Origin: a virus
Length of the DNA stretch: 64,000 bases
Reading direction: 5' to 3' (one strand)
IMG/VR virus record: IMGVR_UViG_3300032282_001282
Coordinates: 1-64,000 of that record
Each line of letters begins with the position of its first letter. The first letter of the stretch is position 1. The position numbers and the translations under genes were made by a program. The notes under the pieces are model-generated. The model made no database searches. It worked only from the letters and a program-made list of their open reading frames with translations, and was not told where the DNA came from. Positions 18,498-64,000 of this stretch are shown here, piece after piece.

Positions 18498-19760
18498 TTA
18501 TCTCTTACTTGGCTGTACGACCTTTAGCTTTCGATCCTTAACTATGCGATAATCGGTGTTGGATTTTGTAATATAATCGCGGTTTAGCAACGCCGGTGTT
18601 GCTTGGTATTTGGTAGTTCCAAAGTAATAATTAGGCGTAAAGTTAACTTTAAGGCCCGTAGGACGATCAAGTTCGTAGATAAGAAGGTCAGGACTGATAT
18701 TGTTTGCTAGGTGCTGTAAACCCGATTCCCATGCACTATATAGGTTAGTGCCTTCTAAATTTTTGTAAAACCAATGGTCCATTTCATTAAAGAAACTGTT
18801 ACTTGGCTTGCTAGTTTGCCAAGTTTCTAAATCATAATCTGGGTATATAATGCTCTTGGCAACGTGTTCGTATGCCGTACGTTCTTTGCTTAAATTACCC
18901 GACCAATTGACCATAAACTGTAAGTGTTGATTCTGCGGTAACTCAAACCAATTCTTAATCATGTGTACTTGTTTAACAACTAACTCGGGTAAATCAGGAG
19001 TCCAGTAAAATAATTCTGTAGTTATGTTTGTGTAGTCTCCAACAATGGGACTAGGATGATTACACATAACATCATTAAAATAAAAATACCAGTTGCTGTC
19101 AATGATAGTCATCCTGGGTTTATCAATTCCGTATAGCACACAGATCTTTTTACCAGTGTCGGCTAAGTCCCTGTGTTCTTTTGAATTTAAGTTATTGTGC
19201 TTATCACCGTGTCCGGGCTGGAACCAGTCACGAGTTGTGAATATCCAAGACTCATCTCGAGTTGTTTCTTGTTCAAACATAAACTCGCTGTAGTCATGGA
19301 ATGTTGTTTTAGTCTTTGGATAGTTAGTGCGTATCCAATCAAATAAAGGTTTAGCCGCAAACTCAGCTTCACCTAAGGTATTATTTGCGTTTGTAGTAAA
19401 TGCATCATATACAGCATCTTTGGCCGCTGTCTTGGGATAACGAAACACAACTTCATCTAAGTGTATACCGTTGAGTAAGAAACTAAAGATAGCAGTAGTA
19501 CTGTCACCACCGCCACTGGCTTCTATACGTATCCAATCGTACTTTTCACGTAATTGTACAGCCCTTAGTCTATACAGCTCACGCAAGTCTGTTTCTGGTT
19601 CTATTGACCAGTCACTTCGTGCAAAAACCAACTCGTTAAAATGCCAAGTTGGTTTCTGTCTTGTTTTTGAAGCATACAAGTAAGCCTGAGGCTTTGAATA
19701 AAAAACCTCAGACCCTACCTTGTAATATCCTAACTTAGGATTTTGTTCTATACCATGCAT
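18498..19760 (-). CDS. PP-loop (adenine nucleotide alpha-hydrolase) ATP pyrophosphatase-like protein, copy 1
   Basis: SGGGDS, HLDEVV, GIDKP and ELFYWTPDLPEL motifs. Confidence 0.7.
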   Translation of the reverse strand: MHGIEQNPKLGYYKVGSEVFYSKPQAYLYASKTRQKPTWHFNELVFARSDWSIEPETDLRELYRLRAVQLREKYDWIRIEASGGGDSTTAIFSFLLNGIHLDEVVFRYPKTAAKDAVYDAFTTNANNTLGEAEFAAKPLFDWIRTNYPKTKTTFHDYSEFMFEQETTRDESWIFTTRDWFQPGHGDKHNNLNSKEHRDLADTGKKICVLYGIDKPRMTIIDSNWYFYFNDVMCNHPSPIVGDYTNITTELFYWTPDLPELVVKQVHMIKNWFELPQNQHLQFMVNWSGNLSKERTAYEHVAKSIIYPDYDLETWQTSKPSNSFFNEMDHWFYKNLEGTNLYSAWESGLQHLANNISPDLLIYELDRPTGLKVNFTPNYYFGTTKYQATPALLNRDYITKSNTDYRIVKDRKLKVVQPSKR

Positions 19761-20668
19761 TACTGGTCTAGTTTAACACCAACTGTTAGTTTAGTCCAGT
19801 ATTCGTTTTGTTCATCAAACCAAGACTTTAGTTGCTTTTCAGGAACAGTGAACGCCTGGCAATAATCTAATGCGTAGGCATCGTGTACAGATTTTGCATT
19901 TTCAACTTTGAGTAAAATCTCGCGGATTTCTTTAGCCTTAGCTTCAGGGAACGAACTAGGAACCATAAAGTTATATGGTGTATTCATTTTAGCCAATGAT
20001 GCCGGGAAGCCTTGACTGCTCAAGTTAGGAAACTTACCAACTGGCTTAGGACCTGTAGTACCTAGGATATTTAAACGAACTTTATTATCTTCGCCAGTCC
20101 AACGTTCCATGTCGCCTACAAAACCAACAACAAAGTCAACCTGTCCGCCTACGCTACCAATAATAGCTTCAGTGGTACTTTTAAACGGAATGATAGTTGA
20201 ATCGGGGAATTTCTTTTGGAACTGTAGTGCAACTAAATGACTAACAACACCAAGACCACTGGTACCAATAGTTAAGTGTTTGTCTTTAGGAACATCACTC
20301 CATGTGCGATATTTAGGACTTGCAATAGCAAATGGTACGCTACATTGTGTCCAGATAGTTCTAAAGTCATTTACGTTCCAGCTTTCTTTAGGATAGAAGT
20401 TTGGACGTAACCAAAACGCACCAGATGTCATAAAAATGGTGTTAGGGTTATTTTTTACGTGATTTACTGCTACTGCTTGACCGCCACCGGGATAAGCATC
20501 TACTAAGAATTCATATTTCTTTTGTATAGCGTTTGCTTCTCTTGCTAGGTTGCGGGTGTAGTTAAATGAATTGTCAGCGGCGCTGAATCCATAAACGATT
20601 GTAACTTTATCTTGTGCTACGGCTGAAAAAGCCAGAGCCGCAAGTAGTACTGCTAAAATTTTCTTCAC
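19760..20668 (-). CDS. tctC: Bug/TctC tripartite tricarboxylate transporter substrate-binding protein
   Basis: Signal peptide; PGGG..AVN, GTSGLG..SHL and PFKS...A...VGGQVD motifs. Confidence 0.75.
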   Translation of the reverse strand: MKKILAVLLAALAFSAVAQDKVTIVYGFSAADNSFNYTRNLAREANAIQKKYEFLVDAYPGGGQAVAVNHVKNNPNTIFMTSGAFWLRPNFYPKESWNVNDFRTIWTQCSVPFAIASPKYRTWSDVPKDKHLTIGTSGLGVVSHLVALQFQKKFPDSTIIPFKSTTEAIIGSVGGQVDFVVGFVGDMERWTGEDNKVRLNILGTTGPKPVGKFPNLSSQGFPASLAKMNTPYNFMVPSSFPEAKAKEIREILLKVENAKSVHDAYALDYCQAFTVPEKQLKSWFDEQNEYWTKLTVGVKLDQ

Positions 20669-20691
20669 GAGAGATCTCCAATAAGTTTATA

Positions 20692-20721
20692 AGTTTACGA
20701 TATTACTCGTATGTTTGTCAA
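20692..20721 (-). promoter_or_regulatory. sigma70-like promoter TTGACA-N18-TAAACT
   Basis: Perfect -35 box upstream of tctC. Confidence 0.45.
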
Positions 20722-20850
20722 ATGTTTTATTTGGCTAGTAGAGAAATCTACTTACGGGAATCGGCGTTCTAGGCATAACATGCTAGTAAAAGAGTTTCGC
20801 TACTCTAGGCGTCAATGTGTAGTCCGACGTCGGAGGATCCGGCGTTGCTA
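20722..20850 (-). ncRNA. candidate late small RNA with four hairpins and repeated ACGCC motifs
   Basis: Directly downstream of TATAAATA (20855-20862); palindrome TCCGACGTCGGA; stems AGAGT/ACTCT, CTAGCAT/ATGCCTAG and GTAGA/TCTAC. Confidence 0.45.
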
Positions 20851-20867
20851 AATTTATTTATACTAGA

Positions 20868-22094
20868 TTAAAATCTGTCGGCAATTTCTACGCTGTAACG
20901 ACGATTGGGATTAGTATACTCTGCAGGACCAATTTTGTAAAATGGAGTTAAGAATCCAACAAAGCCTACTGCACGTTTTAATTCCCAATTAAAATACTTT
21001 GGGTCTACGTTGCGTTCAACAAATTCGATGCCAGCTCGCCAGCTTTGGTACAATTTGTGATTTTCAAATTGACTATAGAACCAATAATCCATTTCACTGT
21101 AGAAGTTAGTAGCAGGCTTACCGACTTGGAAAGTCATTTGATCATAGTCGGGGTATACCAAGGGTTTAATCATTGCTTCATAGGCTGTACGCTGTGCATT
21201 ACTATGATTAGGCCAGCGAGCTAAAAATTGTAAATGACTGTTTGCTGGTTGATTAAACCAGTTGCGTATCACGTGTGCTTGTTTTACACTTAGCTCGGGT
21301 AAATCAGGAGTCCAAAAGAAATACTCGTTAGTAATATTAGTATACTCACCCATGTCGGGGTTGGCGTAGTTAGCTTGGAAGTCGATAAAATACAAATACC
21401 ATTCGCCATCACGTATACACATCTTGGGTTTATCTATGCCGTAGAGTACGCAAATACTTTTTCCAGCGTCGGCTAAGATTCTGTGATTAATTGTTTGGTA
21501 ATTGGGAAATTTAGTAACGTGCCCTGGTTGTAAAAAGTCCTTGGCACTATATACCCAAGACTCATCACGGCCATCATTGGCCAGCATATCAGCAGAGTAA
21601 TCGTGTACTGTTATTTTAATATTAGGGTAGTGTGTCTTGAGCCAATTAAACAGTGGGCGAGTAGCGTACTCATATTCGCTTAGGTGATTTTCTGCGTGAA
21701 AGTTATTTTGTGTAATTGGAATCTTGCCTTCACCGGCTCTAGGATAACGAAACACAATTTCATCTAGGTGTATATCATTTAATAAAAAATTAAATAATGC
21801 CTGTGTGCTATCACTGCCACCACTGCACTCTAATCTAATATAATCGTACTTGTCTCGTAACTGTTGAGCACGAATACGATACAGTTCTTTCAAGCCAATT
21901 TCAGGTTCGTGTTCCCAGTCCTGGGCACCGTAGATTTCATTGTTAAAATTCCAATGCGGAAACTCGCCAGTCTTGGTTGCTTCAATTAAGGCCTGTACCT
22001 TGCTAAAGAAAACTTTATCGCCGACTGTGTAGTAACCTAACTTAGGATTGTTTTCTAAGTTAACATCATAAAACTTTGTTATAAATTTATTCAT
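20868..22094 (-). CDS. PP-loop ATP pyrophosphatase-like protein, copy 2
   Basis: SGGSDS, HLDEIV, GIDKP and EYFFWTPDLPEL motifs; clear paralog of 18498-19760. Confidence 0.7.
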   Translation of the reverse strand: MNKFITKFYDVNLENNPKLGYYTVGDKVFFSKVQALIEATKTGEFPHWNFNNEIYGAQDWEHEPEIGLKELYRIRAQQLRDKYDYIRLECSGGSDSTQALFNFLLNDIHLDEIVFRYPRAGEGKIPITQNNFHAENHLSEYEYATRPLFNWLKTHYPNIKITVHDYSADMLANDGRDESWVYSAKDFLQPGHVTKFPNYQTINHRILADAGKSICVLYGIDKPKMCIRDGEWYLYFIDFQANYANPDMGEYTNITNEYFFWTPDLPELSVKQAHVIRNWFNQPANSHLQFLARWPNHSNAQRTAYEAMIKPLVYPDYDQMTFQVGKPATNFYSEMDYWFYSQFENHKLYQSWRAGIEFVERNVDPKYFNWELKRAVGFVGFLTPFYKIGPAEYTNPNRRYSVEIADRF

Positions 22095-22819
22095 TAGAGA
22101 TTAATAACTAAATCTGGACTTGCACGTTTAAGTAATTCTAGTGTTGTTTCTGTTACGTTGCCTGTTACCTGTAGCATAGGACGATCATGCCAACCCATGT
22201 TACAAGTAGCGTGTGGAATGTCTTGCCATTCCCAAGTAATACAATCACCTGCTCGCCATTGTGTCCACATAGCGTTACCTAACTGAAACACCTGTCCTAA
22301 TTGCCAGTCGGTTAACATAATAGCAAAGCGTCGATAGACTTCGGGGTTTTCGTCAAACTTAGTGACCTTAAAACTATTTTCACGTATAGGATTACCGGGA
22401 AAGTTATCTATGTGTGTAACTAACATCTGTCCTGTACGTTGATTGTGGAAGTTAACGTCAGCTCTAGTAAGACCTAATATGTCTCGGATCATACTAAACA
22501 CACCAACGTTTGTTACGTTTTTGCGATCGTAAATTTCCATTTTAGGATCAGCACCGGCACGTATTAAATCAGCTTCTTCGGCACTGGCGGTATACAACTC
22601 GCCTTTTACTTTGTGTTTGTTACGGTCAGCCCAACCTGTTGCTTTCGATGTTGGCGTACATTGTTGTATAGCCGCTGTAAAATCGTAATTAAAACGACAA
22701 ACGTATGTATAACTGTCCTTACCCGGCTCAGGAGGCCGAGTGGGATCAAAATGCCAACGACTTGTAGCCTTTGTGCCTTCCCAACGGCTACCGTTCCAAT
22801 CTAAATATTTTTCTGTCAT
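22094..22819 (-). CDS. 2OG-Fe(II) oxygenase-like (DSBH fold) protein, copy 1
   Basis: HxD (HID)...PHAT.N...R..LQVTG triad pattern. Confidence 0.6.
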   Translation of the reverse strand: MTEKYLDWNGSRWEGTKATSRWHFDPTRPPEPGKDSYTYVCRFNYDFTAAIQQCTPTSKATGWADRNKHKVKGELYTASAEEADLIRAGADPKMEIYDRKNVTNVGVFSMIRDILGLTRADVNFHNQRTGQMLVTHIDNFPGNPIRENSFKVTKFDENPEVYRRFAIMLTDWQLGQVFQLGNAMWTQWRAGDCITWEWQDIPHATCNMGWHDRPMLQVTGNVTETTLELLKRASPDLVINL

Positions 22820-23779
22820 TTATTTTGTGGAGAGCGATTTAATTAACGGATTAAAAGTTTTTCTTAAATCTTCAACATGACTTTTAATACCTTGTGGGTA
22901 TAACTCTTCTTCAACGTAGAATACAAAGTTTAAGTCAGCATATTCTTTATACTCTGGACTACGTATTGCATCTGCAAAAACACGTTGATACCAATCGACT
23001 ATGTCCTTGGGTGCATTCGGTGGCAACAACAAACTCCATCCGCCATAGATATTAATGTTTCCTACTGAATCTCTTAGTAGTGGGACATTTGGTAACTGTG
23101 GCAACTTTTTATTACCAGTTAAGCCGATGAATTTAATTTTGCCTGCTTCAGCCAACGGCCTTGCAACAGCACTAGGTAATACGCCAAACTCAATACCGGC
23201 ATCACTGGCAACACTGGTTACAACCTGCGCCGGTCCTTGAAATTGAATATACTGTACCTGTTGATTTCCATTGGCTTTAAGCATCATGTATTCGTAGACC
23301 ATACGATGTGCTCCGCTACCAACTCCAACGTTAATAGGATTTTGTGTAGTCTGTAGTCTCTTTACAAATTCAGCCGGAGTGTTTGTTCGGCTGTCGGCTT
23401 TTGCAACCAAGGCCAGTGGACTCTTGCCAATGGTCATTATGTCGGTGAAACTATTGTAATTAAATTTTTTAACATCCGCTTGCCAAATATCGTTAGTAAC
23501 ATAGATACTCATTTGACTGGGAATTAAAATAGTATAACCGTCAGCTGGCGTAGTTACAAAACTGTTGAGAGCCACTACTCCATCTGCGCCAACTTTGTTT
23601 TCAAATATAAATTTAACATCAGGGTTGCGTTTAGAAATAATGTTTGCAATAGCTCTGAATGTAAGTTCATTACCTGTGCCTGGGCCATAACCTATCACTA
23701 CGTTAATTGGTTTAGTGGGTTCCCAAGCAAATGCGGCCAATGGAAATAGCAATAATGCTAATAGAAGTTTTTTTATCAT
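22820..23779 (-). CDS. tctC: Bug/TctC substrate-binding protein
   Basis: Signal peptide; YGPGTG, ENKVGADG and PADGYT motifs. Confidence 0.85.
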   Translation of the reverse strand: MIKKLLLALLLFPLAAFAWEPTKPINVVIGYGPGTGNELTFRAIANIISKRNPDVKFIFENKVGADGVVALNSFVTTPADGYTILIPSQMSIYVTNDIWQADVKKFNYNSFTDIMTIGKSPLALVAKADSRTNTPAEFVKRLQTTQNPINVGVGSGAHRMVYEYMMLKANGNQQVQYIQFQGPAQVVTSVASDAGIEFGVLPSAVARPLAEAGKIKFIGLTGNKKLPQLPNVPLLRDSVGNINIYGGWSLLLPPNAPKDIVDWYQRVFADAIRSPEYKEYADLNFVFYVEEELYPQGIKSHVEDLRKTFNPLIKSLSTK

Positions 23780-23825
23780 TTTGATTGAAATTCTGATGTG
23801 CCTAATACTTATACTAGTTTCTACA

Positions 23826-23854
23826 AGTATAAACTGTTATTTTATCAAAGTCAA
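23826..23854 (-). promoter_or_regulatory. sigma70 promoter TTGACT-N17-TATACT
   Basis: Upstream of the tctC-oxygenase-PP-loop operon. Confidence 0.6.
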
Positions 23855-23909
23855 GCCATGACCTAAATAATTTAGTAGACACCATGTCTACTATTTCAAG
23901 GAGGCAAAT

Positions 23910-24677
23910 TTGTCCAAACGACAACGAGGTAATAGAGCAGAGGCTCTAATTGTAGATAATCACAGTAGTTTTAGTAGTAATAATACAGTAAGGTTGGACT
24001 TGTATCAGAAACCTAGTAAGTTTCAACAACGCCCAATTACGCTGATCCCAAAAAGTCTTGCCCAAGAGACCTATATTGACCTATTAACCGATCCCGAAAA
24101 ACTTATAGTGTTTGCCACAGGCCCAGCGGGCACAGGCAAAACAATGCTGGCTGTACTGGCCGCACTCAAAGCATTTAGGGATGGCAAAATAGAACGTATA
24201 GTCGTAACAAGACCTGCTGTGGGAGTCGATGATGAAGAACATGGGTTTTTACCCGGAGACTTAAATGAAAAGATGGCTCCGTGGACTAGACCTATATTTG
24301 ACATAATCGGCGAATACTACCGCCAAACAGAAATCGTACGTATGCTAGATGAAAATCAAATTGAGATCAGTCCCCTAGCCTATATGAGAGGTAGAACATT
24401 TAAAAAATCGTGGATTATTGCAGACGAAATGCAAAACGCGACACCAAGTCAGATGAAAATGTTACTCACACGATTAGGGGAAGGCAGTAAAATGATCGTT
24501 ACAGGTGATACACGCCAAGCAGATAGACAGGAGGACGACAACGGATTGTTGGATTTCCAGCGTTTAGTAGAGGATTATCAACGCTGTAAATATGTGTCTG
24601 GAATCGAGTTCGATCACAGAGATATTCAACGACACCCTGCTGTGCTTGAAATTCTTAAAATTTACAAGGAGGTCTAG
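23910..24677 (+). CDS. phoH: PhoH-like ATPase
   Basis: GPAGTGKT, GFLPGDL.EK, YMRGRT, DEMQN and TGD..Q.D motifs; TTG start with AGGAGG. Confidence 0.95.
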   Translation: MSKRQRGNRAEALIVDNHSSFSSNNTVRLDLYQKPSKFQQRPITLIPKSLAQETYIDLLTDPEKLIVFATGPAGTGKTMLAVLAALKAFRDGKIERIVVTRPAVGVDDEEHGFLPGDLNEKMAPWTRPIFDIIGEYYRQTEIVRMLDENQIEISPLAYMRGRTFKKSWIIADEMQNATPSQMKMLLTRLGEGSKMIVTGDTRQADRQEDDNGLLDFQRLVEDYQRCKYVSGIEFDHRDIQRHPAVLEILKIYKEV

Positions 24678-24698
24678 TTTATACAAATTAGATAGAGT

Positions 24699-24722
24699 AA
24701 ACCCGGGATCTTCCCGGGTTTT
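24699..24722 (+). terminator. rho-independent terminator
   Basis: AAACCCGGGA-TCT-TCCCGGGTTTT. Confidence 0.8.
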
Positions 24723-24840
24723 GTTATACCCCCCACTAAATACTATAAATATTTCAAGTATGCCTTGCTGTGCCCCCCAAATTCACAAACATTATTTAAT
24801 TAAGGCATAAATATGTTTATATCACTAGGAGATTTACAAT

Positions 24841-25878
24841 ATGTCAGACCGCAGAAAAATTCGTTGGTTAATTGCCCACTTTCCGGTACACCTATTTCAA
24901 AGAACTGCCGAAGCATTTGGCCGCGAACTAGAAACTTTGTGCCCAGGACAATTTGAACTCGAAATCCACACTTTAGATACTTTTGCAGAAAAGTACAGCG
25001 ACAAGTATAGCAATATCAATAAGCGTATGCCACGCTTGCCAGGCTTAGAAGATAAGCAAGGAATTGCAAAGAAGCATGCCGCTACTGACGTTAAAGAAAT
25101 GTACGAAAAATGGGATACATTCTTTGATGGTTTGCGTGAAGGCGATTTCGAAATGAGCCAAACACAAGTATTTACAGTTGCTGAAAAATTACATAATAAA
25201 GATTTTGCCGCACTAGATTTACCATTCTTGTTTGACAATCACGACCACGTTAGCCGTGTATTAGATGGCGAAATTGGTGACGAGCTATGCAAAGGCCTAG
25301 AAAATGAAAAGATTCGTGGTTTAGCATTTACTTACTCCGGTGGTTATCGCATTATCGGTAGCACAAATGGTCTAAGCAACCTTAGTGATTTAGCACACAC
25401 AGATTTGATCGTTGCTAACCGTCCAAGCGAAGTATTGTTTGGCAATGGTTTTGGAACTCCAATCCTACGTCGCTCTGAAGTTGCTAACGCTAGTTTAGCT
25501 GAAGGTGTAAATGACGGCATGGCTGTTGAAACTACATACATTCGCTTTACTGGTAAGCACGTATTAAAAACAAATCACAGTATTTTCATGACAACTATCT
25601 TAACTGGTACTAAGTTCTTAGATAGTTTAACAGAAGACCAACGTAATGCATTTATGGTTGCCGCAAAGCGTGTAGCTAAGATCGAACGTGAGTGGTCTGT
25701 TGCAGATGCTGAAAAATACGAACGCGATGCTGTAACCAATGGTGTTACAATCATTGACTTGTCTGAAGAAGACCAGGCGTTGTTACAGAAGCGAGCAAAA
25801 CTAAGCTATCGCCATGTTGAAGACATGGGTATCGATGTAAACTTAGTAAAACGTATTATTGAACGTCGTAAAGATTAA
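24841..25878 (+). CDS. dctP: DctP-like TRAP substrate-binding protein lacking a signal peptide
   Basis: LDLPFLF..H.H...VLDG.IG, YSGGYR and TNH motifs; SD AGGAG directly upstream. Confidence 0.75.
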   Translation: MSDRRKIRWLIAHFPVHLFQRTAEAFGRELETLCPGQFELEIHTLDTFAEKYSDKYSNINKRMPRLPGLEDKQGIAKKHAATDVKEMYEKWDTFFDGLREGDFEMSQTQVFTVAEKLHNKDFAALDLPFLFDNHDHVSRVLDGEIGDELCKGLENEKIRGLAFTYSGGYRIIGSTNGLSNLSDLAHTDLIVANRPSEVLFGNGFGTPILRRSEVANASLAEGVNDGMAVETTYIRFTGKHVLKTNHSIFMTTILTGTKFLDSLTEDQRNAFMVAAKRVAKIEREWSVADAEKYERDAVTNGVTIIDLSEEDQALLQKRAKLSYRHVEDMGIDVNLVKRIIERRKD

Positions 25879-27002
25879 ATATCACCCACGTAATAACGTG
25901 GGCTGTATTTAGGAATAGTGCCCCGGCCGTTGAGAAACTCCGGGGCTATATTTTTGGCTAGATAATCTGCACCTTGTGCCCAAACATCACGTGCTCGACT
26001 AAACTGTTTTGTATTATAGAACCAAGTATCAAACTCATTGTCCCAATCGCTCTGCGGCTTGTCGACCTGGAACCACGTATTGTCCCATGTTGTTTGATAC
26101 ACAACTCCACGTAAGATCTTTTCCTTGGCAGTTTTAAATATACTGTTAGTACTAGACCAAATACGCTGATAGGTAGGATTGACTTGTAAGAATCGTAAGA
26201 AGGTATGACATTGTTTAGCAAGTATATCGCAAGCTTCAGGCGACCAGTAAAAGAATTCTACTGTGCTGTTATCGTATTCACCAAAGTTTGGATTGATGTT
26301 AATGTTATTAGCTGGCTTGTCTATAAACTGTAGATAGAGTTTGCCGTCAACAATAGTACACGGCGGCTTATCAATGCCTAGTATAATACCAATGTTTTGT
26401 CGGCTGTCAATACGTGAACGTACTTCTTTAACGTGGTAATAATTGTAACGTTGATTACCGCCAGGATTAATAACATCACGACTGTCTAACACCCAAGACT
26501 CGTCACGTGCTTTTAAGTAATAGGTTAAGATGTCTTTGCTAGAATCGTATACTGTAACCTTAGTATTAGGCATATTATCTGCAATCCATTGCATCTTATC
26601 CTTGACTGTTAGTTCATACTCGGCGTTTTGATTCCACGTTTCTGTAATTGCGGGATCTAGTACTAGGAAGTCAGTTTTACTTGCTTCAAAGATCCAGTTA
26701 GTAATAATTTCATCAATGTGCAGACCTTGACGATAGAATGACATTAGGATATTATGACTGTCTGCACCACCTGAGTAACTTAGGATAATGTAATCATATT
26801 GTTCACGTAGTTCACGTGCCCTACGATCATATAGTGCATCTAATGACAGTTCTGGTTCATGACTAAAATCGTACGCATCAAATACATCATTGTTAAACAC
26901 CCATTCAACAGGCAGTTTATTTTGTGTAGCGTGTAGCAAACAGCGGGCTTTGCTGGCAAATGCTTGATTGCCAGCAATATAATATCCTAAGGATTTATTC
27001 AT
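25875..27002 (-). CDS. PP-loop ATP pyrophosphatase-like protein, copy 3
   Basis: YSGGADSHN, HIDEII, GIDKP and EFFYWSP motifs. Confidence 0.7.
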   Translation of the reverse strand: MNKSLGYYIAGNQAFASKARCLLHATQNKLPVEWVFNNDVFDAYDFSHEPELSLDALYDRRARELREQYDYIILSYSGGADSHNILMSFYRQGLHIDEIITNWIFEASKTDFLVLDPAITETWNQNAEYELTVKDKMQWIADNMPNTKVTVYDSSKDILTYYLKARDESWVLDSRDVINPGGNQRYNYYHVKEVRSRIDSRQNIGIILGIDKPPCTIVDGKLYLQFIDKPANNININPNFGEYDNSTVEFFYWSPEACDILAKQCHTFLRFLQVNPTYQRIWSSTNSIFKTAKEKILRGVVYQTTWDNTWFQVDKPQSDWDNEFDTWFYNTKQFSRARDVWAQGADYLAKNIAPEFLNGRGTIPKYSPRYYVGDI

Positions 27003-27907
27003 TATTGTAGTGGCTTAACTTTTGCGGCTTGCTCGCGCCAGAACTTAACCTGTTGGTTAAACCAGCTAACTGTTTGTGCCCAGGTAAAATCTGCTGGTGT
27101 TGAAAACTCTCTAGCATAACCAGCTTGTACATCCGGTGCCCGGTTAGCTACACGTAGTAGCTCATATAGCTCTCGAACTTTTTCTGCAGGCATCTCAGTA
27201 CTAGCAACAATAACAGTATTGGTACTTACATTTTCAAATCCTTTGATACCTTGGCTTGCTAAAGTTGGGTGGCCTTTGATGCTACGTGTTCCTGTTAGGC
27301 CTAGCACACTTGTCAAATTTGCGTCAACTGCGCCTTCAATTTCACTTAACCAGTTCCAACCAGTATCAATATGTCGACCTAATACATCTTTATTGGCATC
27401 TACTAAACTAGTGTAATTAACAATACGAACACCGCTATAATGTTCGCCTAAAATACTTCCCATTAAATTACTGTGGCTACCATAACCGCTGATTGATGTC
27501 GTAAACCCATAGTCTTTCTTTATATCTTTGACGCTTTTGTATTGTGTACTAAAGAGTGCAACTGGTGCGCCAAGGGTTTGAACTAATACTGGTTGAAAAC
27601 TTTCTGCGGCATATCCTGTTTCTTTATCAAAGTTTGGCCGAATAAAGAACGTGCTTGTGCCACCGAGTAATGTATTCTTAGGATTATCCAATATATACTT
27701 TGCGGCTACTGCACCACCTGCACCAGGTTTAGTTTCAAAAACAAACTCGTACTTGGTTTGATTCTTATTAAGATCTGCTACCATAGCACGATAAAAGTTT
27801 GCTTGGTTAGCGGCAGGACTAAAACCCCAGACTAAGGTAATTCTTTCTGCGGCCATTGCCGTGACTGAAGCGGCCATAAGTGCGGCCAACACTATTTTTT
27901 TAAACAT
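27002..27907 (-). CDS. tctC: Bug/TctC substrate-binding protein
   Basis: Signal peptide; ETKPGAGG and PTLASQG motifs. Confidence 0.75.
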   Translation of the reverse strand: MFKKIVLAALMAASVTAMAAERITLVWGFSPAANQANFYRAMVADLNKNQTKYEFVFETKPGAGGAVAAKYILDNPKNTLLGGTSTFFIRPNFDKETGYAAESFQPVLVQTLGAPVALFSTQYKSVKDIKKDYGFTTSISGYGSHSNLMGSILGEHYSGVRIVNYTSLVDANKDVLGRHIDTGWNWLSEIEGAVDANLTSVLGLTGTRSIKGHPTLASQGIKGFENVSTNTVIVASTEMPAEKVRELYELLRVANRAPDVQAGYAREFSTPADFTWAQTVSWFNQQVKFWREQAAKVKPLQ

Positions 27908-27916
27908 TTAATTTTC

Positions 27917-28651
27917 CTATTTGAAATTTCTTACATTGAACTTGGGATCAGTACGATCTGTTCTAAGTCCAGTTACTTGCAAAGTCATGCGGCTATGCTC
28001 ACTTGCATTGGCTGTGGCGTGTGGAACATTTGGCCAATCATGCATATGAACTTCTCCGGCTCTCCATTGTTGATATACAGAGTTACCATATATCATAAAC
28101 TGTCCGGGCTTCCAATCTTCTAACATAACAGTAGCACGGACAATATCTAAAGGATCGTAACCATAGTCCTGGTTATCAGGATTACCATTACCATCCCGGT
28201 AAAACAATCTTTGTATTGGGTCTATGTGTGCTGTAAACATTTGCCCAGTTTTTTGTACATGACAACGAGAGTGTGTCACACTAAAATTAAAACTGTCAAT
28301 AACTTTTTGTAATTCAGGAAACTCTGTAAAGTCATCAAAGACATCAGTTAATTCGATTTGATCGAGATTGCCACCGCCCCGAGCAATATCAGACTTGCGT
28401 TTGTCGATGCCCAGTACAATTTGCTTGGAACCACCTGTATAGGTAATGTTGTTCCAAGTGGCAGAAAAACTGCGATTGCGTATAACAGGAAGGTAGTCGT
28501 TCCACGTTACTGGAACACTACCTAATACCATAAATGTTGAGTTGGGTCTGTCTTGTTTAAAATTATCAAAGTGGTAAGAGCTTTTTGTCTTTGACCACTC
28601 CCATACGCTATCGTAATCTGCTAGAGTTTTTGGTTTATTTGAGTTTTCCAT
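27917..28651 (-). CDS. 2OG-Fe(II) oxygenase-like protein, copy 2
   Basis: HIDP...PHATAN...R..LQVTG; paralog of 22094-22819. Confidence 0.6.
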   Translation of the reverse strand: MENSNKPKTLADYDSVWEWSKTKSSYHFDNFKQDRPNSTFMVLGSVPVTWNDYLPVIRNRSFSATWNNITYTGGSKQIVLGIDKRKSDIARGGGNLDQIELTDVFDDFTEFPELQKVIDSFNFSVTHSRCHVQKTGQMFTAHIDPIQRLFYRDGNGNPDNQDYGYDPLDIVRATVMLEDWKPGQFMIYGNSVYQQWRAGEVHMHDWPNVPHATANASEHSRMTLQVTGLRTDRTDPKFNVRNFK

Positions 28652-29597
28652 TTGTTAATTGATCAAGCAGTCCTGAGCTAAAATAAGTGTTAAACTTATT
28701 ATACAGTCCTGCTGTTGCAGATACAAATTTTTCTTTTTCATTTGCAGTCATGCGTACAGTAGGAATGCCTTGCTCAGCGGCACGTTTTTGAATTACAACA
28801 TTATCGGCTAGGCTATGATCACGTTCGATTTGAGCGGCTCTCATAGCGGCACGAGCAAAAATGCCCTGTACCTTTTCACCTAAGGCTAACCAAGTTTGTT
28901 GGTTGATAATTAAACTGGTTAGGAACAAGCTGTGTTCGTTATCATTAATATGTGTAGTTTGCTTATCGTGGCCTAGTACAAAGAAACGAGTGTAAGTAGT
29001 TTCACCACCATCAACACGACCAGTTTCTAAACTAGCTTCTAAGTCTTCGATAAACATTGGAACTGGAGTAGAGCCAACGGCCTTGAAAGTTTCAACTGCT
29101 ACTGGGTTATTACCACAGCCGATATTCATACTAGCAAAATCGCCAATGGATTCGATTGCACGATTACTTGGAACAATACGGAAACCACCTGAGTAAGTAA
29201 ATGCTAGTCCACGGATATTGCTATTATCAGCAACTTTGGCCAACATGTGTTGCCCAACTGGACCATCAATAACTTGACGTGCTTGCTCATCGCTGTTGAA
29301 TAAGAATGGCATTGTTAGTGCATACATATCTTTGTCAACACGACCTAAAGTACTTGCATAAACTGTAGCCATGTCAATAATACCATTATCAACTAAACCG
29401 ATAACACGCTCACGGTCTGTAGTGTGTTCTGTTAAATTATCTTTAGCAATAGCGTTCCATTCTTTAAGATCTAGAACATTAATTGTATATTGACCGTTGG
29501 TTTCTGTATAAACTTCTTCGGCAAAGCTCTTAGCGGCTTCAATAAAAACATGGTAAGGCTCATGGGCCAATACCCAGTTTAGGGTGTACTTTTGCAT
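28635..29597 (-). CDS. dctP: DctP-like TRAP substrate-binding protein lacking a signal peptide
   Basis: MPFLF, YSGGFR, G.TPVPM...L..G.VDG.E motifs; SD AGGAG. Confidence 0.8.
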   Translation of the reverse strand: MQKYTLNWVLAHEPYHVFIEAAKSFAEEVYTETNGQYTINVLDLKEWNAIAKDNLTEHTTDRERVIGLVDNGIIDMATVYASTLGRVDKDMYALTMPFLFNSDEQARQVIDGPVGQHMLAKVADNSNIRGLAFTYSGGFRIVPSNRAIESIGDFASMNIGCGNNPVAVETFKAVGSTPVPMFIEDLEASLETGRVDGGETTYTRFFVLGHDKQTTHINDNEHSLFLTSLIINQQTWLALGEKVQGIFARAAMRAAQIERDHSLADNVVIQKRAAEQGIPTVRMTANEKEKFVSATAGLYNKFNTYFSSGLLDQLTNGKLK

Positions 29598-29632
29598 TTT
29601 GGGGTCTCCTGTTGGACTGCTACTTGATATAA

Positions 29633-30229
29633 TTATTTATCTACAGGACCGGCAATAATACTATAAACTTCTTCCCAGTTTTTAACTGTACGCACACCAT
29701 CGTGATAGTGATTCATATTATGCCCGTGTTCCATTAACAGAGCATTTAATCCCAAATTTGCACCCAATTCAGCGTTTTGCGGTTTATCTTCAATCCACCA
29801 GCAACCTGTGTCGCGGTATGGGTATAGTGCTTCATCTTTGTCTGCGCCTGTGGCCAAACAAACAACACGTTGGAATACCGTATCTCCAAATAGTTTACTT
29901 AGATTCATTTCCCTAAGTCGTTGTGCATTTGGGTCTGTGCTTAGGCTAGTAATACAATGGAAAACATACCCATGTTCTTCGTGTAGCTTTTTAACATAGT
30001 GTATGGCATCACGTAACGGAGGCAAGAAACCAATTGCGGCACTTTCGTTAAACATCTTAATTAGACGTTTGCCTTGGTCCTTACTAATACCGTACCTTGT
30101 GCCAATATCATAGTTAAATTCACCACCGGGTAGTTTTTCAAATCCGTGTGTTTCTAACCAAATATTAAATGCGTACTCCCAATTGAGTAACACACCATCT
30201 GCATCTACTAATATAACTGATTCTTTCAT
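29633..30229 (-). CDS. HAD-superfamily phosphatase / 5'-nucleotidase-like (T4 gp30.2-like)
   Basis: LVDADGVL, ITSLS and WIEDK motifs. Confidence 0.8.
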   Translation of the reverse strand: MKESVILVDADGVLLNWEYAFNIWLETHGFEKLPGGEFNYDIGTRYGISKDQGKRLIKMFNESAAIGFLPPLRDAIHYVKKLHEEHGYVFHCITSLSTDPNAQRLREMNLSKLFGDTVFQRVVCLATGADKDEALYPYRDTGCWWIEDKPQNAELGANLGLNALLMEHGHNMNHYHDGVRTVKNWEEVYSIIAGPVDK

Positions 30230-30681
30230 TCTGCTCCTTTTGTTAGTTCACATACTAACATAAAATGATCGTATGCTTGTCTAACACTTTCATGTTTCAA
30301 TAGTTTGTCTGCTTCTGCTTGCATAGCGTGTACACCAGCTTCGGCACAATCACGGATGCTGAGTCCTTGTAGTGTACACAGCTCGTCACCAAAGGCTTCA
30401 GCAAGAGCATGCCAAGCTCGTTTCTGCTCTGGGGTAACAGTCGCCTGTTTTGGGCGTAGTTCACTGGCCTTTTGTATAGCCTTACATATAGCATCTTCTG
30501 CTATACGGCTAGCGGCTATCATTGGTGCGTAAGCAGGATCGACATTATACCTACGACTAGAACCACCTGGGTATACACTTAGCAAGTGATGGCCTTTGGG
30601 TAATGCGTCCATTAGTTCAGTATCGTACTCATATACTGGAACATATCGACGGCCTTCTTTTTTGTAATACAACTGCTTCAT
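30226..30681 (-). CDS. hypothetical protein
   Basis: ORF in operon. Confidence 0.7.
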   Translation of the reverse strand: MKQLYYKKEGRRYVPVYEYDTELMDALPKGHHLLSVYPGGSSRRYNVDPAYAPMIAASRIAEDAICKAIQKASELRPKQATVTPEQKRAWHALAEAFGDELCTLQGLSIRDCAEAGVHAMQAEADKLLKHESVRQAYDHFMLVCELTKGAE

Positions 30682-31349
30682 AGTACTTTTACATAATTTA
30701 GATTTGTAACACGAGCATTACCGCGGTACTTGTCTTTGTTATGTGCTTTAACTTTACCTTGGATACGGCCTGCTTCAATAATTTTCTTATTGTCCTTAGC
30801 CCAATAAAAAATCAAATCCCCATTGTCGTCATTGCCGTATACTGCATAACAATCCATACTAGGGACATATCGGCTTTCAATAATTGAAAAATTTACAACA
30901 ATTTTTTCGCCAATTTTGCCAACAAAATTACTTTGGTGTTCGTAACGAGCACTTACTTCGCGGATCTGATCTTTTTTCTTTTGATCGTGGGCAAGTTTTG
31001 GAGCCCATGCAAGTAGCCCAATATCTCGTATGTTGAGATTTTCGTTGCCGAGTATTTCTGCAATTTTATGAAGGAATTGATTTGAGCTACCCTTGGTCAA
31101 GGTTTGCATTATATGTGTCTGTTGCAGGAAAGACACAATGTCTTCGGCTTCAGCACGATGCGAATCTTTAATTTCAAAATTTGATGTTTGATTTAGCACA
31201 CCAAGGATAATTTCTCTGTTGGGTGCTAGTTTTTCTGGGCCGTTGGCATCACGAACAACTTTTTGTTGGTTGTGTTCAAAGGCGGCAACTGCTACTGCAA
31301 GAGCCTGAATAGTAGAAAAATGTTTTTGCTTATTCACAGGCAACTCCAT
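30678..31349 (-). CDS. hypothetical protein with possible C-terminal OB fold
   Basis: FVGKIGEK...GKVKAH...T.LNYVK pattern. Confidence 0.6.
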   Translation of the reverse strand: MELPVNKQKHFSTIQALAVAVAAFEHNQQKVVRDANGPEKLAPNREIILGVLNQTSNFEIKDSHRAEAEDIVSFLQQTHIMQTLTKGSSNQFLHKIAEILGNENLNIRDIGLLAWAPKLAHDQKKKDQIREVSARYEHQSNFVGKIGEKIVVNFSIIESRYVPSMDCYAVYGNDDNGDLIFYWAKDNKKIIEAGRIQGKVKAHNKDKYRGNARVTNLNYVKVL

Positions 31350-63241: not shown

Positions 63242-64000
63242 TTATTGTACGTTTTTCTTGGTTTTTTCTAATATTTTAAATGTCTTATTCTGTATTGTAC
63301 GCAAATCCTCAAACGAGCCACCGGCGTTTATAACGCCCGATGTTTTGAGTCTTTCTGCGTATACAGGATTTTTCAACCCTTCCTCAACCACGAGATGTAT
63401 TCTAGCCACAGTTGCTAAATCAGTACCAGCCGGCGCAAATAGTCCATACCAAATGTTCATGTCTAATTCGGGGTGCTTCTTGGATAACGCTGGTAATTTA
63501 ACAGAAGGATTTAATTCGTTGACCGTATGGCTTCCTTCGGGAGTCAGTGCGGCAATAAATTTAATTTTTCCAGCCTGCCATTGTGGCTTTAGTGTACCCA
63601 GTGAATCAATTGAAAAATCCACATTGCCGGCCATCAAATCAATCAGTGCTGGGCCGCCACCTTTGTAGTTGATAATCTGTGGTGCTGGTAATTTTTCCAA
63701 TTTGGCCCAGTATGTAAACAAGTTGGCATTGTGATTGGACCAGTGTGCTATGTTGAATTTGTTGGGATTTTTGCGTACATAGTCCTTGAGTTCTTCATAG
63801 TTGTTAACAGGACTGTTTGCAGGAACAGCAAGAATAAATGTGGCAATACCCATTGGGATAATTGGAGAGAAACTGGCCGGTGTATATTCTATATTTTCTT
63901 GTGCAGTCTTGAAAACAATATTACTGTCCAAGGTACCTTGACTGACCATGAATACTGTGTGTCCGTCTGGATTGGCCTTGGCCACATAGTTGGCGGCAAT
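63242..64000 (-). CDS. tctC: Bug/TctC substrate-binding protein (5' end outside window)
   Basis: A.PDGHT, YKGGGPALIDLMAGNVD and WYGLFAPAGT motifs. Confidence 0.9.
   Translation of the reverse strand: MAANYVAKANPDGHTVFMVSQGTLDSNIVFKTAQENIEYTPASFSPIIPMGIATFILAVPANSPVNNYEELKDYVRKNPNKFNIAHWSNHNANLFTYWAKLEKLPAPQIINYKGGGPALIDLMAGNVDFSIDSLGTLKPQWQAGKIKFIAALTPEGSHTVNELNPSVKLPALSKKHPELDMNIWYGLFAPAGTDLATVARIHLVVEEGLKNPVYAERLKTSGVINAGGSFEDLRTIQNKTFKILEKTKKNVQ

Follow-up and report, generated by a model that had tools for sequence, protein, structure and literature searches.

Two intact DctP-family genes lie within the analysed window, which comprises the first 64,000 nucleotides of an 86-kb record of a giant uncultured phage (IMG/VR record IMGVR_UViG_3300032282_001282; a fragment estimated to be 24% complete). 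The first gene, denoted DctP-A, stands alone on the plus strand. The second, denoted DctP-B, is the first gene of a tight four-gene operon on the minus strand that continues with genes for a 2OG/Fe(II)-oxygenase-like protein, a TctC-like binding protein and a PP-loop enzyme. Paralogues of these three neighbours are found on the other side of DctP-A.

Features of the DctP-A/DctP-B region (positions refer to the window).
Feature	Position	Strand	Characteristics
TctC-like binding protein 1	19760-20668	-	Sec signal peptide
Structured RNA leader	20722-20862	-	follows an invariant ATAAATA; precedes TctC-like gene 1
PP-loop enzyme 1	20868-22094	-	408 aa; motif ECSGGSDS; paralogue of PP-loop enzyme 2
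2OG-oxygenase-like paralogue 1	22094-22819	-	241 aa; 25% identical to the copy at 27917-28651
TctC-like binding protein 2	22820-23779	-	Sec signal peptide
ATAAATA heptamer (second copy, TATAAATA)	24744-24751		90 nt before the DctP-A ATG
ATAAATA heptamer	24807-24813	+	28 nt before the DctP-A ATG
AGGAG	24827-24831		9 nt before the DctP-A ATG
DctP-A	24841-25878	+	345 aa; leaderless; ~28-aa insertion in domain I; Ile188 at the SiaP-Arg147 position; R170 (GGYR) and R235 (ETTYIR) kept
PP-loop enzyme 2	25875-27002	-	375 aa; motif SYSGGADS; no glutaminase domain
TctC/Bug-like binding protein 3	27002-27907	-	Sec signal peptide (MFKKIVLAALMAASVTAMAAE)
2OG/Fe(II)-oxygenase-like protein	27917-28651	-	244 aa; start overlaps the DctP-B stop by 17 nt
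DctP-B	28635-29597	-	320 aa; leaderless; Gly160 at the SiaP-Arg147 position; R140 (GGFR) and R204 (ETTYTR) kept
AGGAG	29610-29606	-	9 nt before the DctP-B ATG
ATAAATA heptamer	29634-29640	-	37 nt before the DctP-B ATG; overlaps the stop codon of the NT5C-like gene

DctP-A and DctP-B are full-length family members without an export signal

To establish the family assignment, both proteins were compared with profile libraries. DctP-B matched Pfam DctP (PF03480) at 1e-43 (150.1 bits, profile positions 9-283 of 286) and DctP-A at 5e-24 (85.4 bits, positions 46-281 of 286; cut-off 23.4 bits); the NCBIfam TRAP_S1 profile (NF037995) yielded 139 bits and 73 bits (72.9), respectively, against a cut-off of 50. 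PDB hits extended down to 1e-25, and homology to solved TRAP binding proteins (for example H. influenzae SiaP, 4p47, 4n8y, IseP 8t9t and TeaA 2vpn) was clear over the whole two-domain protein, although the two-lobed type II fold with a hinge and a closable cleft is inferred from full-length sequence alignment only. About 991 homologues of DctP-B were found, the top 120 of which are all 312-347 aa long.

Next we asked whether a signal peptide could have been missed through a wrongly assigned start, a possibility that the earlier note had named as one that would overturn its observation. An in-frame stop lies 4 codons upstream of DctP-A and 13 codons upstream of DctP-B, with no start codon in between, and the first conserved strand (W-[VL]-[LI]-A-H) begins at residue 8-9. 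The N-termini are hydrophilic: the highest 10-residue hydropathy within the first 35 residues is 1.57 for DctP-A and 1.15 for DctP-B, compared with 2.46-3.11 for the three TctC-like proteins, which carry typical Sec leaders. The 'RR' of DctP-A is not a Tat signal, because it lies in the first strand of the mature fold and is replaced by KK or PRT in relatives.

HMMER pairwise alignments to solved TRAP binding proteins (4p47, 4n8y and 4xfe; 4p9k, 4p47 and 4pdd) placed their 'lKiR/lKmR' arginine opposite Gly160 of DctP-B (MNIGC) and Ile188 of DctP-A (TDLIV). The G-[FY]-R arginine (SiaP Arg127 position) and the 'DLPFLF' and 'VDG.E' motifs are kept, whereas 'E-N-P' is replaced by 'E-T-T-Y-x-R', which introduces a new arginine. 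The SiaP Arg147 equivalent is the carboxylate selectivity filter and is present in 96.8% of DctP-family binding proteins, and SiaP variants mutated at Arg147 could be engineered to accept sialylamide (PMC4646407). DctP-A and DctP-B belong to the ~3% of the family lacking this residue, together with Csal_0678, which binds ethanolamine, and T. pallidum Tp0957, which has a hydrophobic pocket (summarised in PMC4646407); the hydrophobic substitution in the DctP-A clade resembles the Phe and Ala cases, but those proteins are exported components of transporters.

Both genes are preceded by late-promoter-like motifs, as the earlier note had claimed on the basis of TAAATA. This hexamer alone is weak (50 copies in the window), and strict TATAAATA is not enriched (5 copies observed, 6.4 expected). 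The heptamer ATAAATA is informative: of its 16 copies, 13 lie 5-150 nt upstream of a same-strand gene start and 7 fall in the 6.6% of the window that is non-coding. Collectively, these data confirm the observation made in the earlier note, namely that two DctP-like proteins, each starting shortly after an AGGAG, lack both a signal peptide and the canonical arginine while the TctC-like proteins are exported in type.

The leaderless state is a conserved character of two large phage clades

To determine whether this is a local oddity, we collected relatives from IMG/VR. By pattern scan, the phage clades headed by DctP-B and DctP-A, which have not been described, comprise 349 and 198 loci, respectively; the DctP-A clade has at least 120 protein clusters. 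Of the ORFs fetched, 83 of 84 DctP-B-type and 89 of 90 DctP-A-type phage ORFs are leaderless, whereas all 51 phage TctC-like ORFs in the same loci keep Sec leaders. Relatives bearing a signal peptide occurred only on Bdellovibrionota and Elusimicrobiota contigs. These orphan, uncharacterised proteins are the closest cellular relatives (33-40% identity) and share the W-V-L-A-H-E-P, F-T-Y-S-G-G-F-R and E-[ST]-T-Y-x-R signature. dN/dS values of 0.05-0.14 for DctP-B and 0.22-0.40 for DctP-A indicate purifying selection, the value for DctP-A against its closest relative (0.40) being fairly high. Because the tree was rooted by midpoint only, the direction of signal-peptide loss rests mainly on the ancestral state of the whole DctP family.

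Loss of the canonical arginine is in contrast a feature of sub-clades: 67 of 84 DctP-B-type phage ORFs keep it. The arginines of GG[FY]R and ETTYxR are nearly invariant, so that loss of the Arg147 equivalent does not by itself show a non-acid ligand.

It is conceivable that the DctP-likes have become enzymes that catalyse a step on the bound molecule, as cyclohexadienyl dehydratase and THI5 evolved from binding proteins. Precedent exists for enzymes evolving from solute-binding proteins (PMC7683729), and invariant polar residues (H12, T134, S136, Y202, R204, H222) do line the conserved motifs. However, the same residues are already present in the exported bacterial relatives. The binding-site signature (W8, H12, GLAFTYSGG, T201, R204, E258-R259) is shared by exported bacterial and leaderless phage members, and no new conserved, catalytic-looking set of residues accompanies leader loss. 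We consider this reading unlikely.

Leaderless DctP genes are linked to predicted enzymes and to uptake genes

We then examined the neighbouring genes. The AF2 model of PP-loop enzyme 2 (pLDDT 88) aligned (VIA-align) to AsnB residues 141-515 with a Z score of 11.2 (1ct9), followed by human ASNS (9b6c, 10.3), beta-lactam synthetase (1jgt, 10.1) and carbapenam synthetase (8.6), and above generic PP-loop enzymes (7.8 or less); the model was also searched with Foldseek, and the assignment is that of an asparagine-synthetase-B-class synthetase domain without the N-terminal Ntn glutaminase domain. Its clusters in the Atlas are virus-only. The oxygenase-like protein at 27917-28651 gave no Pfam, PDB or NCBIfam sequence hit. 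Alignment revealed an invariant H142-x-D144...H211 and R221, and its AF2 model (pLDDT 74) matched proline 3-/4-hydroxylases and EctD in Foldseek with probability 1.0 but a TM of only 0.4-0.49. The neighbour folds are predicted and match at moderate scores. TctC-like protein 2 matched Pfam TctC at 6e-23 and protein 1 at 6e-6, just under the cut-off; protein 3 had no Pfam hit of its own but matched the other TctC-like genes by tblastn and has 84-88% identical orthologues in two of the loci collected (L003 and L017).

Among 38 DctP-B-type phage loci with flanks of at least 4 kb, 32 have a module partner within 5 kb (PP-loop 22, TctC 20, oxygenase-like 6, and a gene denoted X200 3), whereas none of the signal-peptide-bearing bacterial loci, whose neighbours are varied, do. 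Of 38 DctP-A-type loci, 17 have a PP-loop gene nearby. Six of the 38 DctP-B-type and 21 of the 38 DctP-A-type loci show none of the partner genes within 5 kb; the clustering could therefore partly reflect a general accessory-gene island rather than one pathway.

Eight phage loci (L172, L174 and L187-L192) carry dctQ, dctM and a signal-peptide-bearing DctP, as checked with Pfam in L190, where these genes lie between a leaderless A-type and a leaderless B-type copy. In Bdellovibrionota, the operon order is MFS permease, X200 and leaderless DctP. No DctM (PF06808) or TctA gene was detected in the present record or in four 94-100% complete relatives of 345-374 kb. A host permease cannot be excluded, but it would be on the wrong side of the membrane for a cytoplasmic binding protein.

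These findings bear on the possibility that the leaderless proteins reach the periplasm or the medium by a non-classical route or at lysis and serve host or phage TRAP permeases as ordinary binding proteins. The presence of dctQM beside leaderless copies in a few phages, and the retention of the carboxylate arginine in most DctP-B-type members, would be compatible with it. In those same loci, however, a separate DctP with a signal peptide sits directly after dctM, and the TctC-like genes of the same operons keep their leaders; together with the absence of DctM from the four near-complete relatives, this makes the possibility improbable.

The RNA leader upstream of TctC-like gene 1 was recovered by blastn at 72-85% identity in 18 loci. 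It comprises 22 pairs, 11 of which show compensatory changes, and has no Rfam match. In other phages it directly precedes the leaderless DctP gene. This riboswitch-like element is a candidate sensor for the module, which weighs against a role of the DctP-likes as ligand-dependent regulators that switch an enzyme, a permease (from the inside) or gene expression. The solute-binding-protein fold is widely reused for sensing, two divergent paralogues occur per genome, and permease genes are linked in L190-type phages and in Bdellovibrionota; on the other hand, there is no DNA-binding or signalling domain, and no fused longer forms were found. A regulatory role remains possible but doubtful.

Discussion

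We propose, with a probability of about 0.5, that DctP-A and DctP-B are cytoplasmic small-molecule binding proteins that descend from exported TRAP-type solute-binding proteins, have permanently lost their export signal, and work late in infection as the intracellular arm of a phage 'capture-and-convert' module. In this view, exported TctC-like proteins would present an organic-acid-type solute to a membrane permease, which would be the host's TctAB here and a phage-encoded TRAP QM or a bacterial MFS permease in relatives. The leaderless DctP-likes would bind that solute, or a derivative of it, as a sink or carrier; the AsnB-like PP-loop enzyme would adenylate and amidate (or cyclise) it, and the oxygenase-like enzyme would tailor it. 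These steps are inferred from gene content and synteny. With the canonical arginine replaced and the two other arginines kept, both copies probably hold the ligand in a shifted geometry or prefer a neutralised (for example amidated) form. Family membership, the absence of any export signal, the arginine substitutions, clade-wide conservation, purifying selection and synteny are demonstrated by the analysis, whereas cytoplasmic location, expression and its late timing, ligand binding, contacts with and hand-over to the enzymes are inferred, and the ligand class is a guess from family chemistry.

The interpretation offered in the earlier note is thus supported in part. Its suggestion of repurposed intracellular ligand binders linked to the adjacent enzymes fits the comparative evidence, but loss of the canonical arginine is not a property of the phage family: most leaderless DctP-B-type members keep that residue. 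Its alternative, a sponge for a host immune signal, considered here as a second messenger such as a cyclic nucleotide, is not supported and appears very unlikely. In its favour are only the general fact that phages use high-affinity cytoplasmic binders as sponges and the missing arginine in these two copies. Against it, the promoter motifs are late-type rather than early, the genes are embedded in enzyme and uptake operons across hundreds of loci rather than in a setting typical of counter-defence genes, leaderless homologues sit in ordinary bacterial MFS operons, and the binding-site signature is shared with exported relatives. PADLOC, which covers defence systems, returned nothing, and no resemblance to any known sponge (such as Tad1, Tad2 or Acb2) was seen in searches that did not include an anti-defence library.

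Phages also borrow host-type solute-binding proteins as auxiliary uptake genes, as exemplified by cyanophage PstS, and this probably applies to the TctC-like genes of the module. PstS-type proteins keep their export signal and plug into a host transporter; the DctP-likes described here have no such signal and are linked to predicted enzymes. A more far-reaching reading, which is speculative and unlikely on present evidence, is that large uncultured phages run a self-contained small-molecule pathway late in infection, in which exported TctC/TRAP binding proteins pull in an amino-acid-like organic acid, cytoplasmic DctP-derived proteins trap it and its products, and a glutaminase-less AsnB-type enzyme paired with a 2OG oxygenase, the same enzyme pairing as in carbapenem and clavulanate biosynthesis, converts it into an amide or lactam under the control of a new riboswitch-like RNA. 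The arginine-less copies in this window would then be the product-specific (neutral amide) binders.

TRAP-type binding proteins are, in the textbook view, extracytoplasmic and defined by one carboxylate-clamping arginine. Taken together, our data indicate that a whole radiation of them, in hundreds of uncultured large phages and some predatory bacteria, has moved, by inference from its missing leaders, into the cytoplasm and has in sub-clades dispensed with that arginine. Practically, the radiation would provide ready-made cytoplasmic binding scaffolds for biosensor design. It is tied to exported binding proteins and to a virus-only enzyme family predicted to form amides in an ATP-dependent manner. 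If the function is confirmed, it would show a new use of the binding-protein fold as an intracellular metabolite trap or carrier, and would also reveal an undescribed way for phages to take up and chemically convert a host-environment metabolite.

Identification of two leaderless DctP-family proteins

The DNA under study is the first 64 kb of an 86,283-bp IMG/VR virus record that is rated 24% complete by CheckV. The clamp-loader protein encoded on it is 56.6% identical to that of the 287-kb Pseudomonas jumbo phage PA5oct, and four related contigs carrying the same genes are 345-374 kb long and 94-100% complete. The record is therefore a fragment of an uncultured jumbo phage distantly related to T4. 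A search for near-identical DNA among cultured phage records returned none.

To establish the family of the two proteins, denoted DctP-A and DctP-B, their sequences were compared with profile libraries. DctP-A matches Pfam DctP (PF03480) at 5e-24 and DctP-B at 1e-43, the latter match covering profile positions 9-283 of 286; NCBIfam TRAP_S1 is also passed. Next we asked whether either protein could carry an export signal. An in-frame TAG lies 4 codons before the DctP-A ATG and a TAA lies 13 codons before the DctP-B ATG, with no start codon between, and AGGAG lies 9 nt before each ATG. The first 35 residues have a maximum 10-residue hydropathy of 1.57 and 1.15, respectively, whereas the three TctC-like proteins of the same cluster score 2.46-3.11 and have textbook Sec leaders. 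A Tat signal in DctP-A ('SDRRK') was considered and rejected, because the RR is not conserved in the clade and lies in the first strand of the mature protein.

HMMER alignments to solved TRAP binding proteins place their conserved 'K-I/M-R' arginine opposite Gly160 of DctP-B (4p47, 4n8y, 4xfe) and Ile188 of DctP-A (4p9k, 4p47, 4pdd), while the 'G-F/Y-R' arginine is kept in both proteins. The ungapped offset of 13 in the SiaP hit (query 72-256 to chain 59-243) maps R140 to SiaP 127, G160 to 147 and T200 to Asn187; this residue mapping is inferred from the offset and was not read from a printed alignment.

The late promoters proposed in the earlier note rested on the hexamer TAAATA, which is too common to be meaningful (50 copies in the window), and the strict T4 late promoter TATAAATA is not enriched. 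The heptamer ATAAATA, in contrast, is enriched: it occurs 16 times, with 13 copies lying 5-150 nt upstream of a same-strand gene start and 7 copies in the 6.6% of the sequence that is non-coding. It is invariant at the 5' edge of a conserved RNA element in 14 of 15 aligned phage loci. It lies 28 and 90 nt before DctP-A and 37 nt before DctP-B, so that a late-type promoter is plausible for both. Collectively, these data confirm what the earlier note had observed, namely that two DctP-like proteins lack both a signal peptide and the canonical carboxylate-binding arginine.

Coordinates of the features described (window positions unless a locus handle precedes them; L-numbers denote individual homologous loci retrieved for comparison)
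Feature	Position	Strand	Size
DctP-A	24841-25878	+	345 aa
DctP-B	28635-29597	-	320 aa
DctP-B operon	29597 down to 25875	-
Second cassette	23779 down to 19760
Structured RNA element	20722-20862	-	140 nt
NT5C-like 5'-nucleotidase/HAD gene	29633-30229	-
Fourth TctC-like gene, running off the window	63305-64000	-
Phage TRAP transporter locus	L190:7989-13671
MFS permease, X200, leaderless DctP-like operon	L096:8141-10951
MFS permease, X200, leaderless DctP-like operon	L122:8162-10948
PP-loop gene of the second family	L083:3784-4956		~390 aa

Conservation of the leaderless state

DctP-B has about 991 homologues at E below 1e-5, of which the best 120 (44-93% identity) are all 312-347 aa long and lie on contigs of up to 374 kb. 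DctP-A has at least 120 clusters at 44% identity or more, on contigs of up to 363 kb. Pattern scans of IMG/VR confirmed 349 and 198 loci for the DctP-B and DctP-A types, respectively. In the loci that were retrieved, 83 of 84 DctP-B-type and 89 of 90 DctP-A-type ORFs have no signal peptide at any possible start, as judged by a hydropathy heuristic and not by SignalP. The single exception in each set (the DctP-B orthologue of one contig, retrieved as L017 and L154) arises from an upstream TTG that yields an implausible leader. By tblastn against cultured phage records, both DctPs gave only weak hits (<27% identity), mostly to short unannotated or bacterial-looking records. A search for fused longer forms of DctP-B found none, which is weak evidence. 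Searches of the literature for phage-encoded or cytoplasmic DctP/TRAP binding proteins found no description of them in the collection searched.

A scan of one genome per prokaryotic species found 72 loci, mostly from Bdellovibrionota (Bacteriovorax, Bdellovibrio, Pseudobdellovibrio) and Elusimicrobiota. Many of these have obvious Sec leaders in front of the same W-V-L-A-H-E-P first strand, for example L093, L091 and L087. All other DctP-family proteins are exported, so the leaderless state is most simply derived; a midpoint-rooted FastTree agrees, although the rooting is weak. The genes are under purifying selection, with dN/dS values of 0.05-0.14 for DctP-B and 0.22-0.40 for DctP-A.

Loss of the canonical arginine is narrower than the earlier note had assumed and is a sub-clade feature. 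Among the 84 DctP-B-type phage ORFs, 67 keep it, and the 17 that lack it are the close relatives of DctP-B (Gly, Ser or Ala) and of DctP-A (Ile). The 312-aa copy in L190 is one relative that retains the arginine. In the wider DctP-A clade the column is variable (V 17, R 16, K 13, I 11, Q 8, L 6 and others). By contrast, the 'GG[FY]R' arginine is kept in 78/84 and 90/90 phage ORFs, and the arginine of 'E-[ST]-T-Y-x-R', which replaces the canonical 'E-N-P', is kept in 155/158 and 88/90 ORFs overall. Fischer et al. (PMC4646407) showed that Arg147 is the carboxylate selectivity filter, that it is present in 96.8% of the family, that Arg-less members bind atypical ligands such as ethanolamine or have hydrophobic pockets, and that SiaP variants mutated at Arg147 could be engineered to accept sialylamide. 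DctP-A and DctP-B would therefore either hold an acid through the two remaining arginines or prefer a neutral derivative, two alternatives that the sequence does not distinguish.

Genomic surroundings and predicted folds of the neighbours

DctP-B is the first gene of a tightly packed operon, in which it is followed by a 244-aa protein (its start overlaps the DctP-B stop by 17 nt), TctC-like 3 and a 375-aa PP-loop protein (PP-loop 2). The second cassette runs TctC-like 2, a 241-aa paralogue, a 408-aa PP-loop paralogue, the RNA element and TctC-like 1. DctP-A lies between the two cassettes, convergent with PP-loop 2. An NT5C-like gene (PHROG 420) sits directly upstream of DctP-B, and the candidate DctP-B promoter overlaps its stop codon; this adjacency is conserved in L003, L004 and L023. 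A fourth TctC-like gene (Pfam TctC 1.3e-35) lies at the window edge, far from the cluster. PADLOC gave no hits for the DctP-likes or their neighbours.

Sequence searches of the PP-loop and 241-244-aa proteins against Pfam, NCBIfam and PDB gave nothing significant; their identities rest on predicted folds. The PP-loop protein has no hit in cultured phages, and in the ESM Atlas the PP-loop proteins fall in virus-only 'hypothetical' clusters. A confident AF2 model (pLDDT 88) aligns best to the synthetase domain of E. coli asparagine synthetase B (Z 11.2), human ASNS (10.3), beta-lactam synthetase (10.1), carbapenam synthetase (8.6) and TsnB9 (8.5), which stand above generic PP-loop enzymes at 7.8 or less; Foldseek agrees. 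There is no glutaminase domain. The 241-244-aa proteins have an invariant H-x-D...H and a later Arg, and their moderate model (pLDDT 74) matches 2OG/Fe(II) oxygenases that act on free amino acids, namely proline 3- and 4-hydroxylases and EctD (TM 0.4-0.49).

Of 38 DctP-B-type phage loci with at least 4 kb on both sides, 32 have a partner within 5 kb: a PP-loop gene in 22, a TctC-like gene in 20, an oxygenase-like gene in 6 and X200, a 200-aa protein of no known family, in 3. Of 38 DctP-A-type loci, 17 have a PP-loop gene nearby. The PP-loop genes come from two families that hhalign relates at 92% probability, over the N-terminus and the PP-loop. The second family (motif YYSGGIDS, C-terminal NNNNGQK motif) adjoins leaderless DctP genes in L083 and relatives (L084, L095, L108, L138, L042, L048, L031, L040, L025, L022). 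All 51 phage TctC-like ORFs have Sec leaders. In the genome set, partner genes occur only next to leaderless copies and never next to signal-peptide-bearing ones. The exported bacterial relatives are orphans with unrelated neighbours. Three of the five MAGs checked (the genomes of L093, L126 and L084) show no DctM gene at all; the DctP-like gene is exported in L093 and L126 and leaderless in L084. This sub-family may work without a TRAP permease even in bacteria, although the genomes are incomplete.

In Bdellovibrionota contigs that are clearly bacterial, with flagellin and Crp-type regulator genes nearby, a leaderless copy ends a conserved operon of MFS permease, X200 and DctP-like gene (L096 and L122; also L092, L097, L098, L100, L103 and L104). 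X200 also accompanies the DctP-like gene in phage loci L047, L014/L015 and L040. It has no Pfam hit, and its comparison with the oxygenase-like family by hhalign indicated no relation (probability 0.6%); its invariant PHTD...H...R motif is only suggestive. Eight phage loci from at least two lineages (L172, L174 and L187-L192) encode a complete TRAP transporter consisting of DctQ, DctM and a DctP with a signal peptide. In L190 it is flanked by one leaderless DctP-A-type gene and one leaderless DctP-B-type gene and is followed by a gene like a ring-hydroxylating oxygenase alpha subunit. Neither the present record nor the four near-complete relatives encode DctM or TctA, and the exported TctC-likes would therefore have to use a host permease.

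A conserved RNA element shared by both types of binding protein

The intergenic RNA element, which follows an invariant ATAAATA, is 72-85% identical at the nucleotide level in 18 phage loci whose proteins are far more diverged. RNAalifold predicts 22 pairs, 11 of them with compensatory double changes, and an Rfam search of positions 19000-31000 returned no match. The element looks riboswitch-like. Here it precedes TctC-like 1 and is absent in front of DctP-A and DctP-B, whereas in L023, L034, L038, L052, L068, L069 and L109 it lies immediately upstream of the leaderless DctP gene. This ties the exported and non-exported binding proteins to one control element.

Proposed role

The most economical reading is that the two proteins bind a small molecule in the cytoplasm, late in infection, as the intracellular arm of a capture-and-convert module; we give this a probability of about 0.5. 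The missing leaders, the arginine replacements and the conserved gene neighbourhoods are seen in the sequences themselves, whereas cytoplasmic location, ligand binding and late expression are inferred from them. The binding-site signature (W8, H12, G-L-A-F-T-Y-S-G-G, T201, R204, E258-R259) is shared by exported bacterial and leaderless phage members, and no new conserved residue set accompanies leader loss, which favours a binder over a new enzyme; an enzymatic role is unlikely but remains possible. A sensor or regulator is a tentative alternative, and export by a non-classical route is more doubtful still. The idea that the proteins act as sponges for an immune signal has nothing specific in its favour and fits poorly with the late-type promoters, the embedding in operons and the bacterial MFS operons. 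The interpretation offered in the earlier note, that of repurposed intracellular ligand binders which might serve the adjacent enzymes or act as sponges for a host immune or metabolic signal, is partly supported. The pairing of a glutaminase-less synthetase of the asparagine synthetase B class with a 2OG oxygenase is the same as in carbapenem and clavulanate biosynthesis, and it suggests amide or lactam formation on an amino-acid-like acid, which is speculation built on predicted folds. Across the phage and bacterial contexts, the recurring theme is an uptake device, that is, an exported binding protein and/or a permease, together with a non-exportable DctP-like protein and predicted acid-modifying enzymes.
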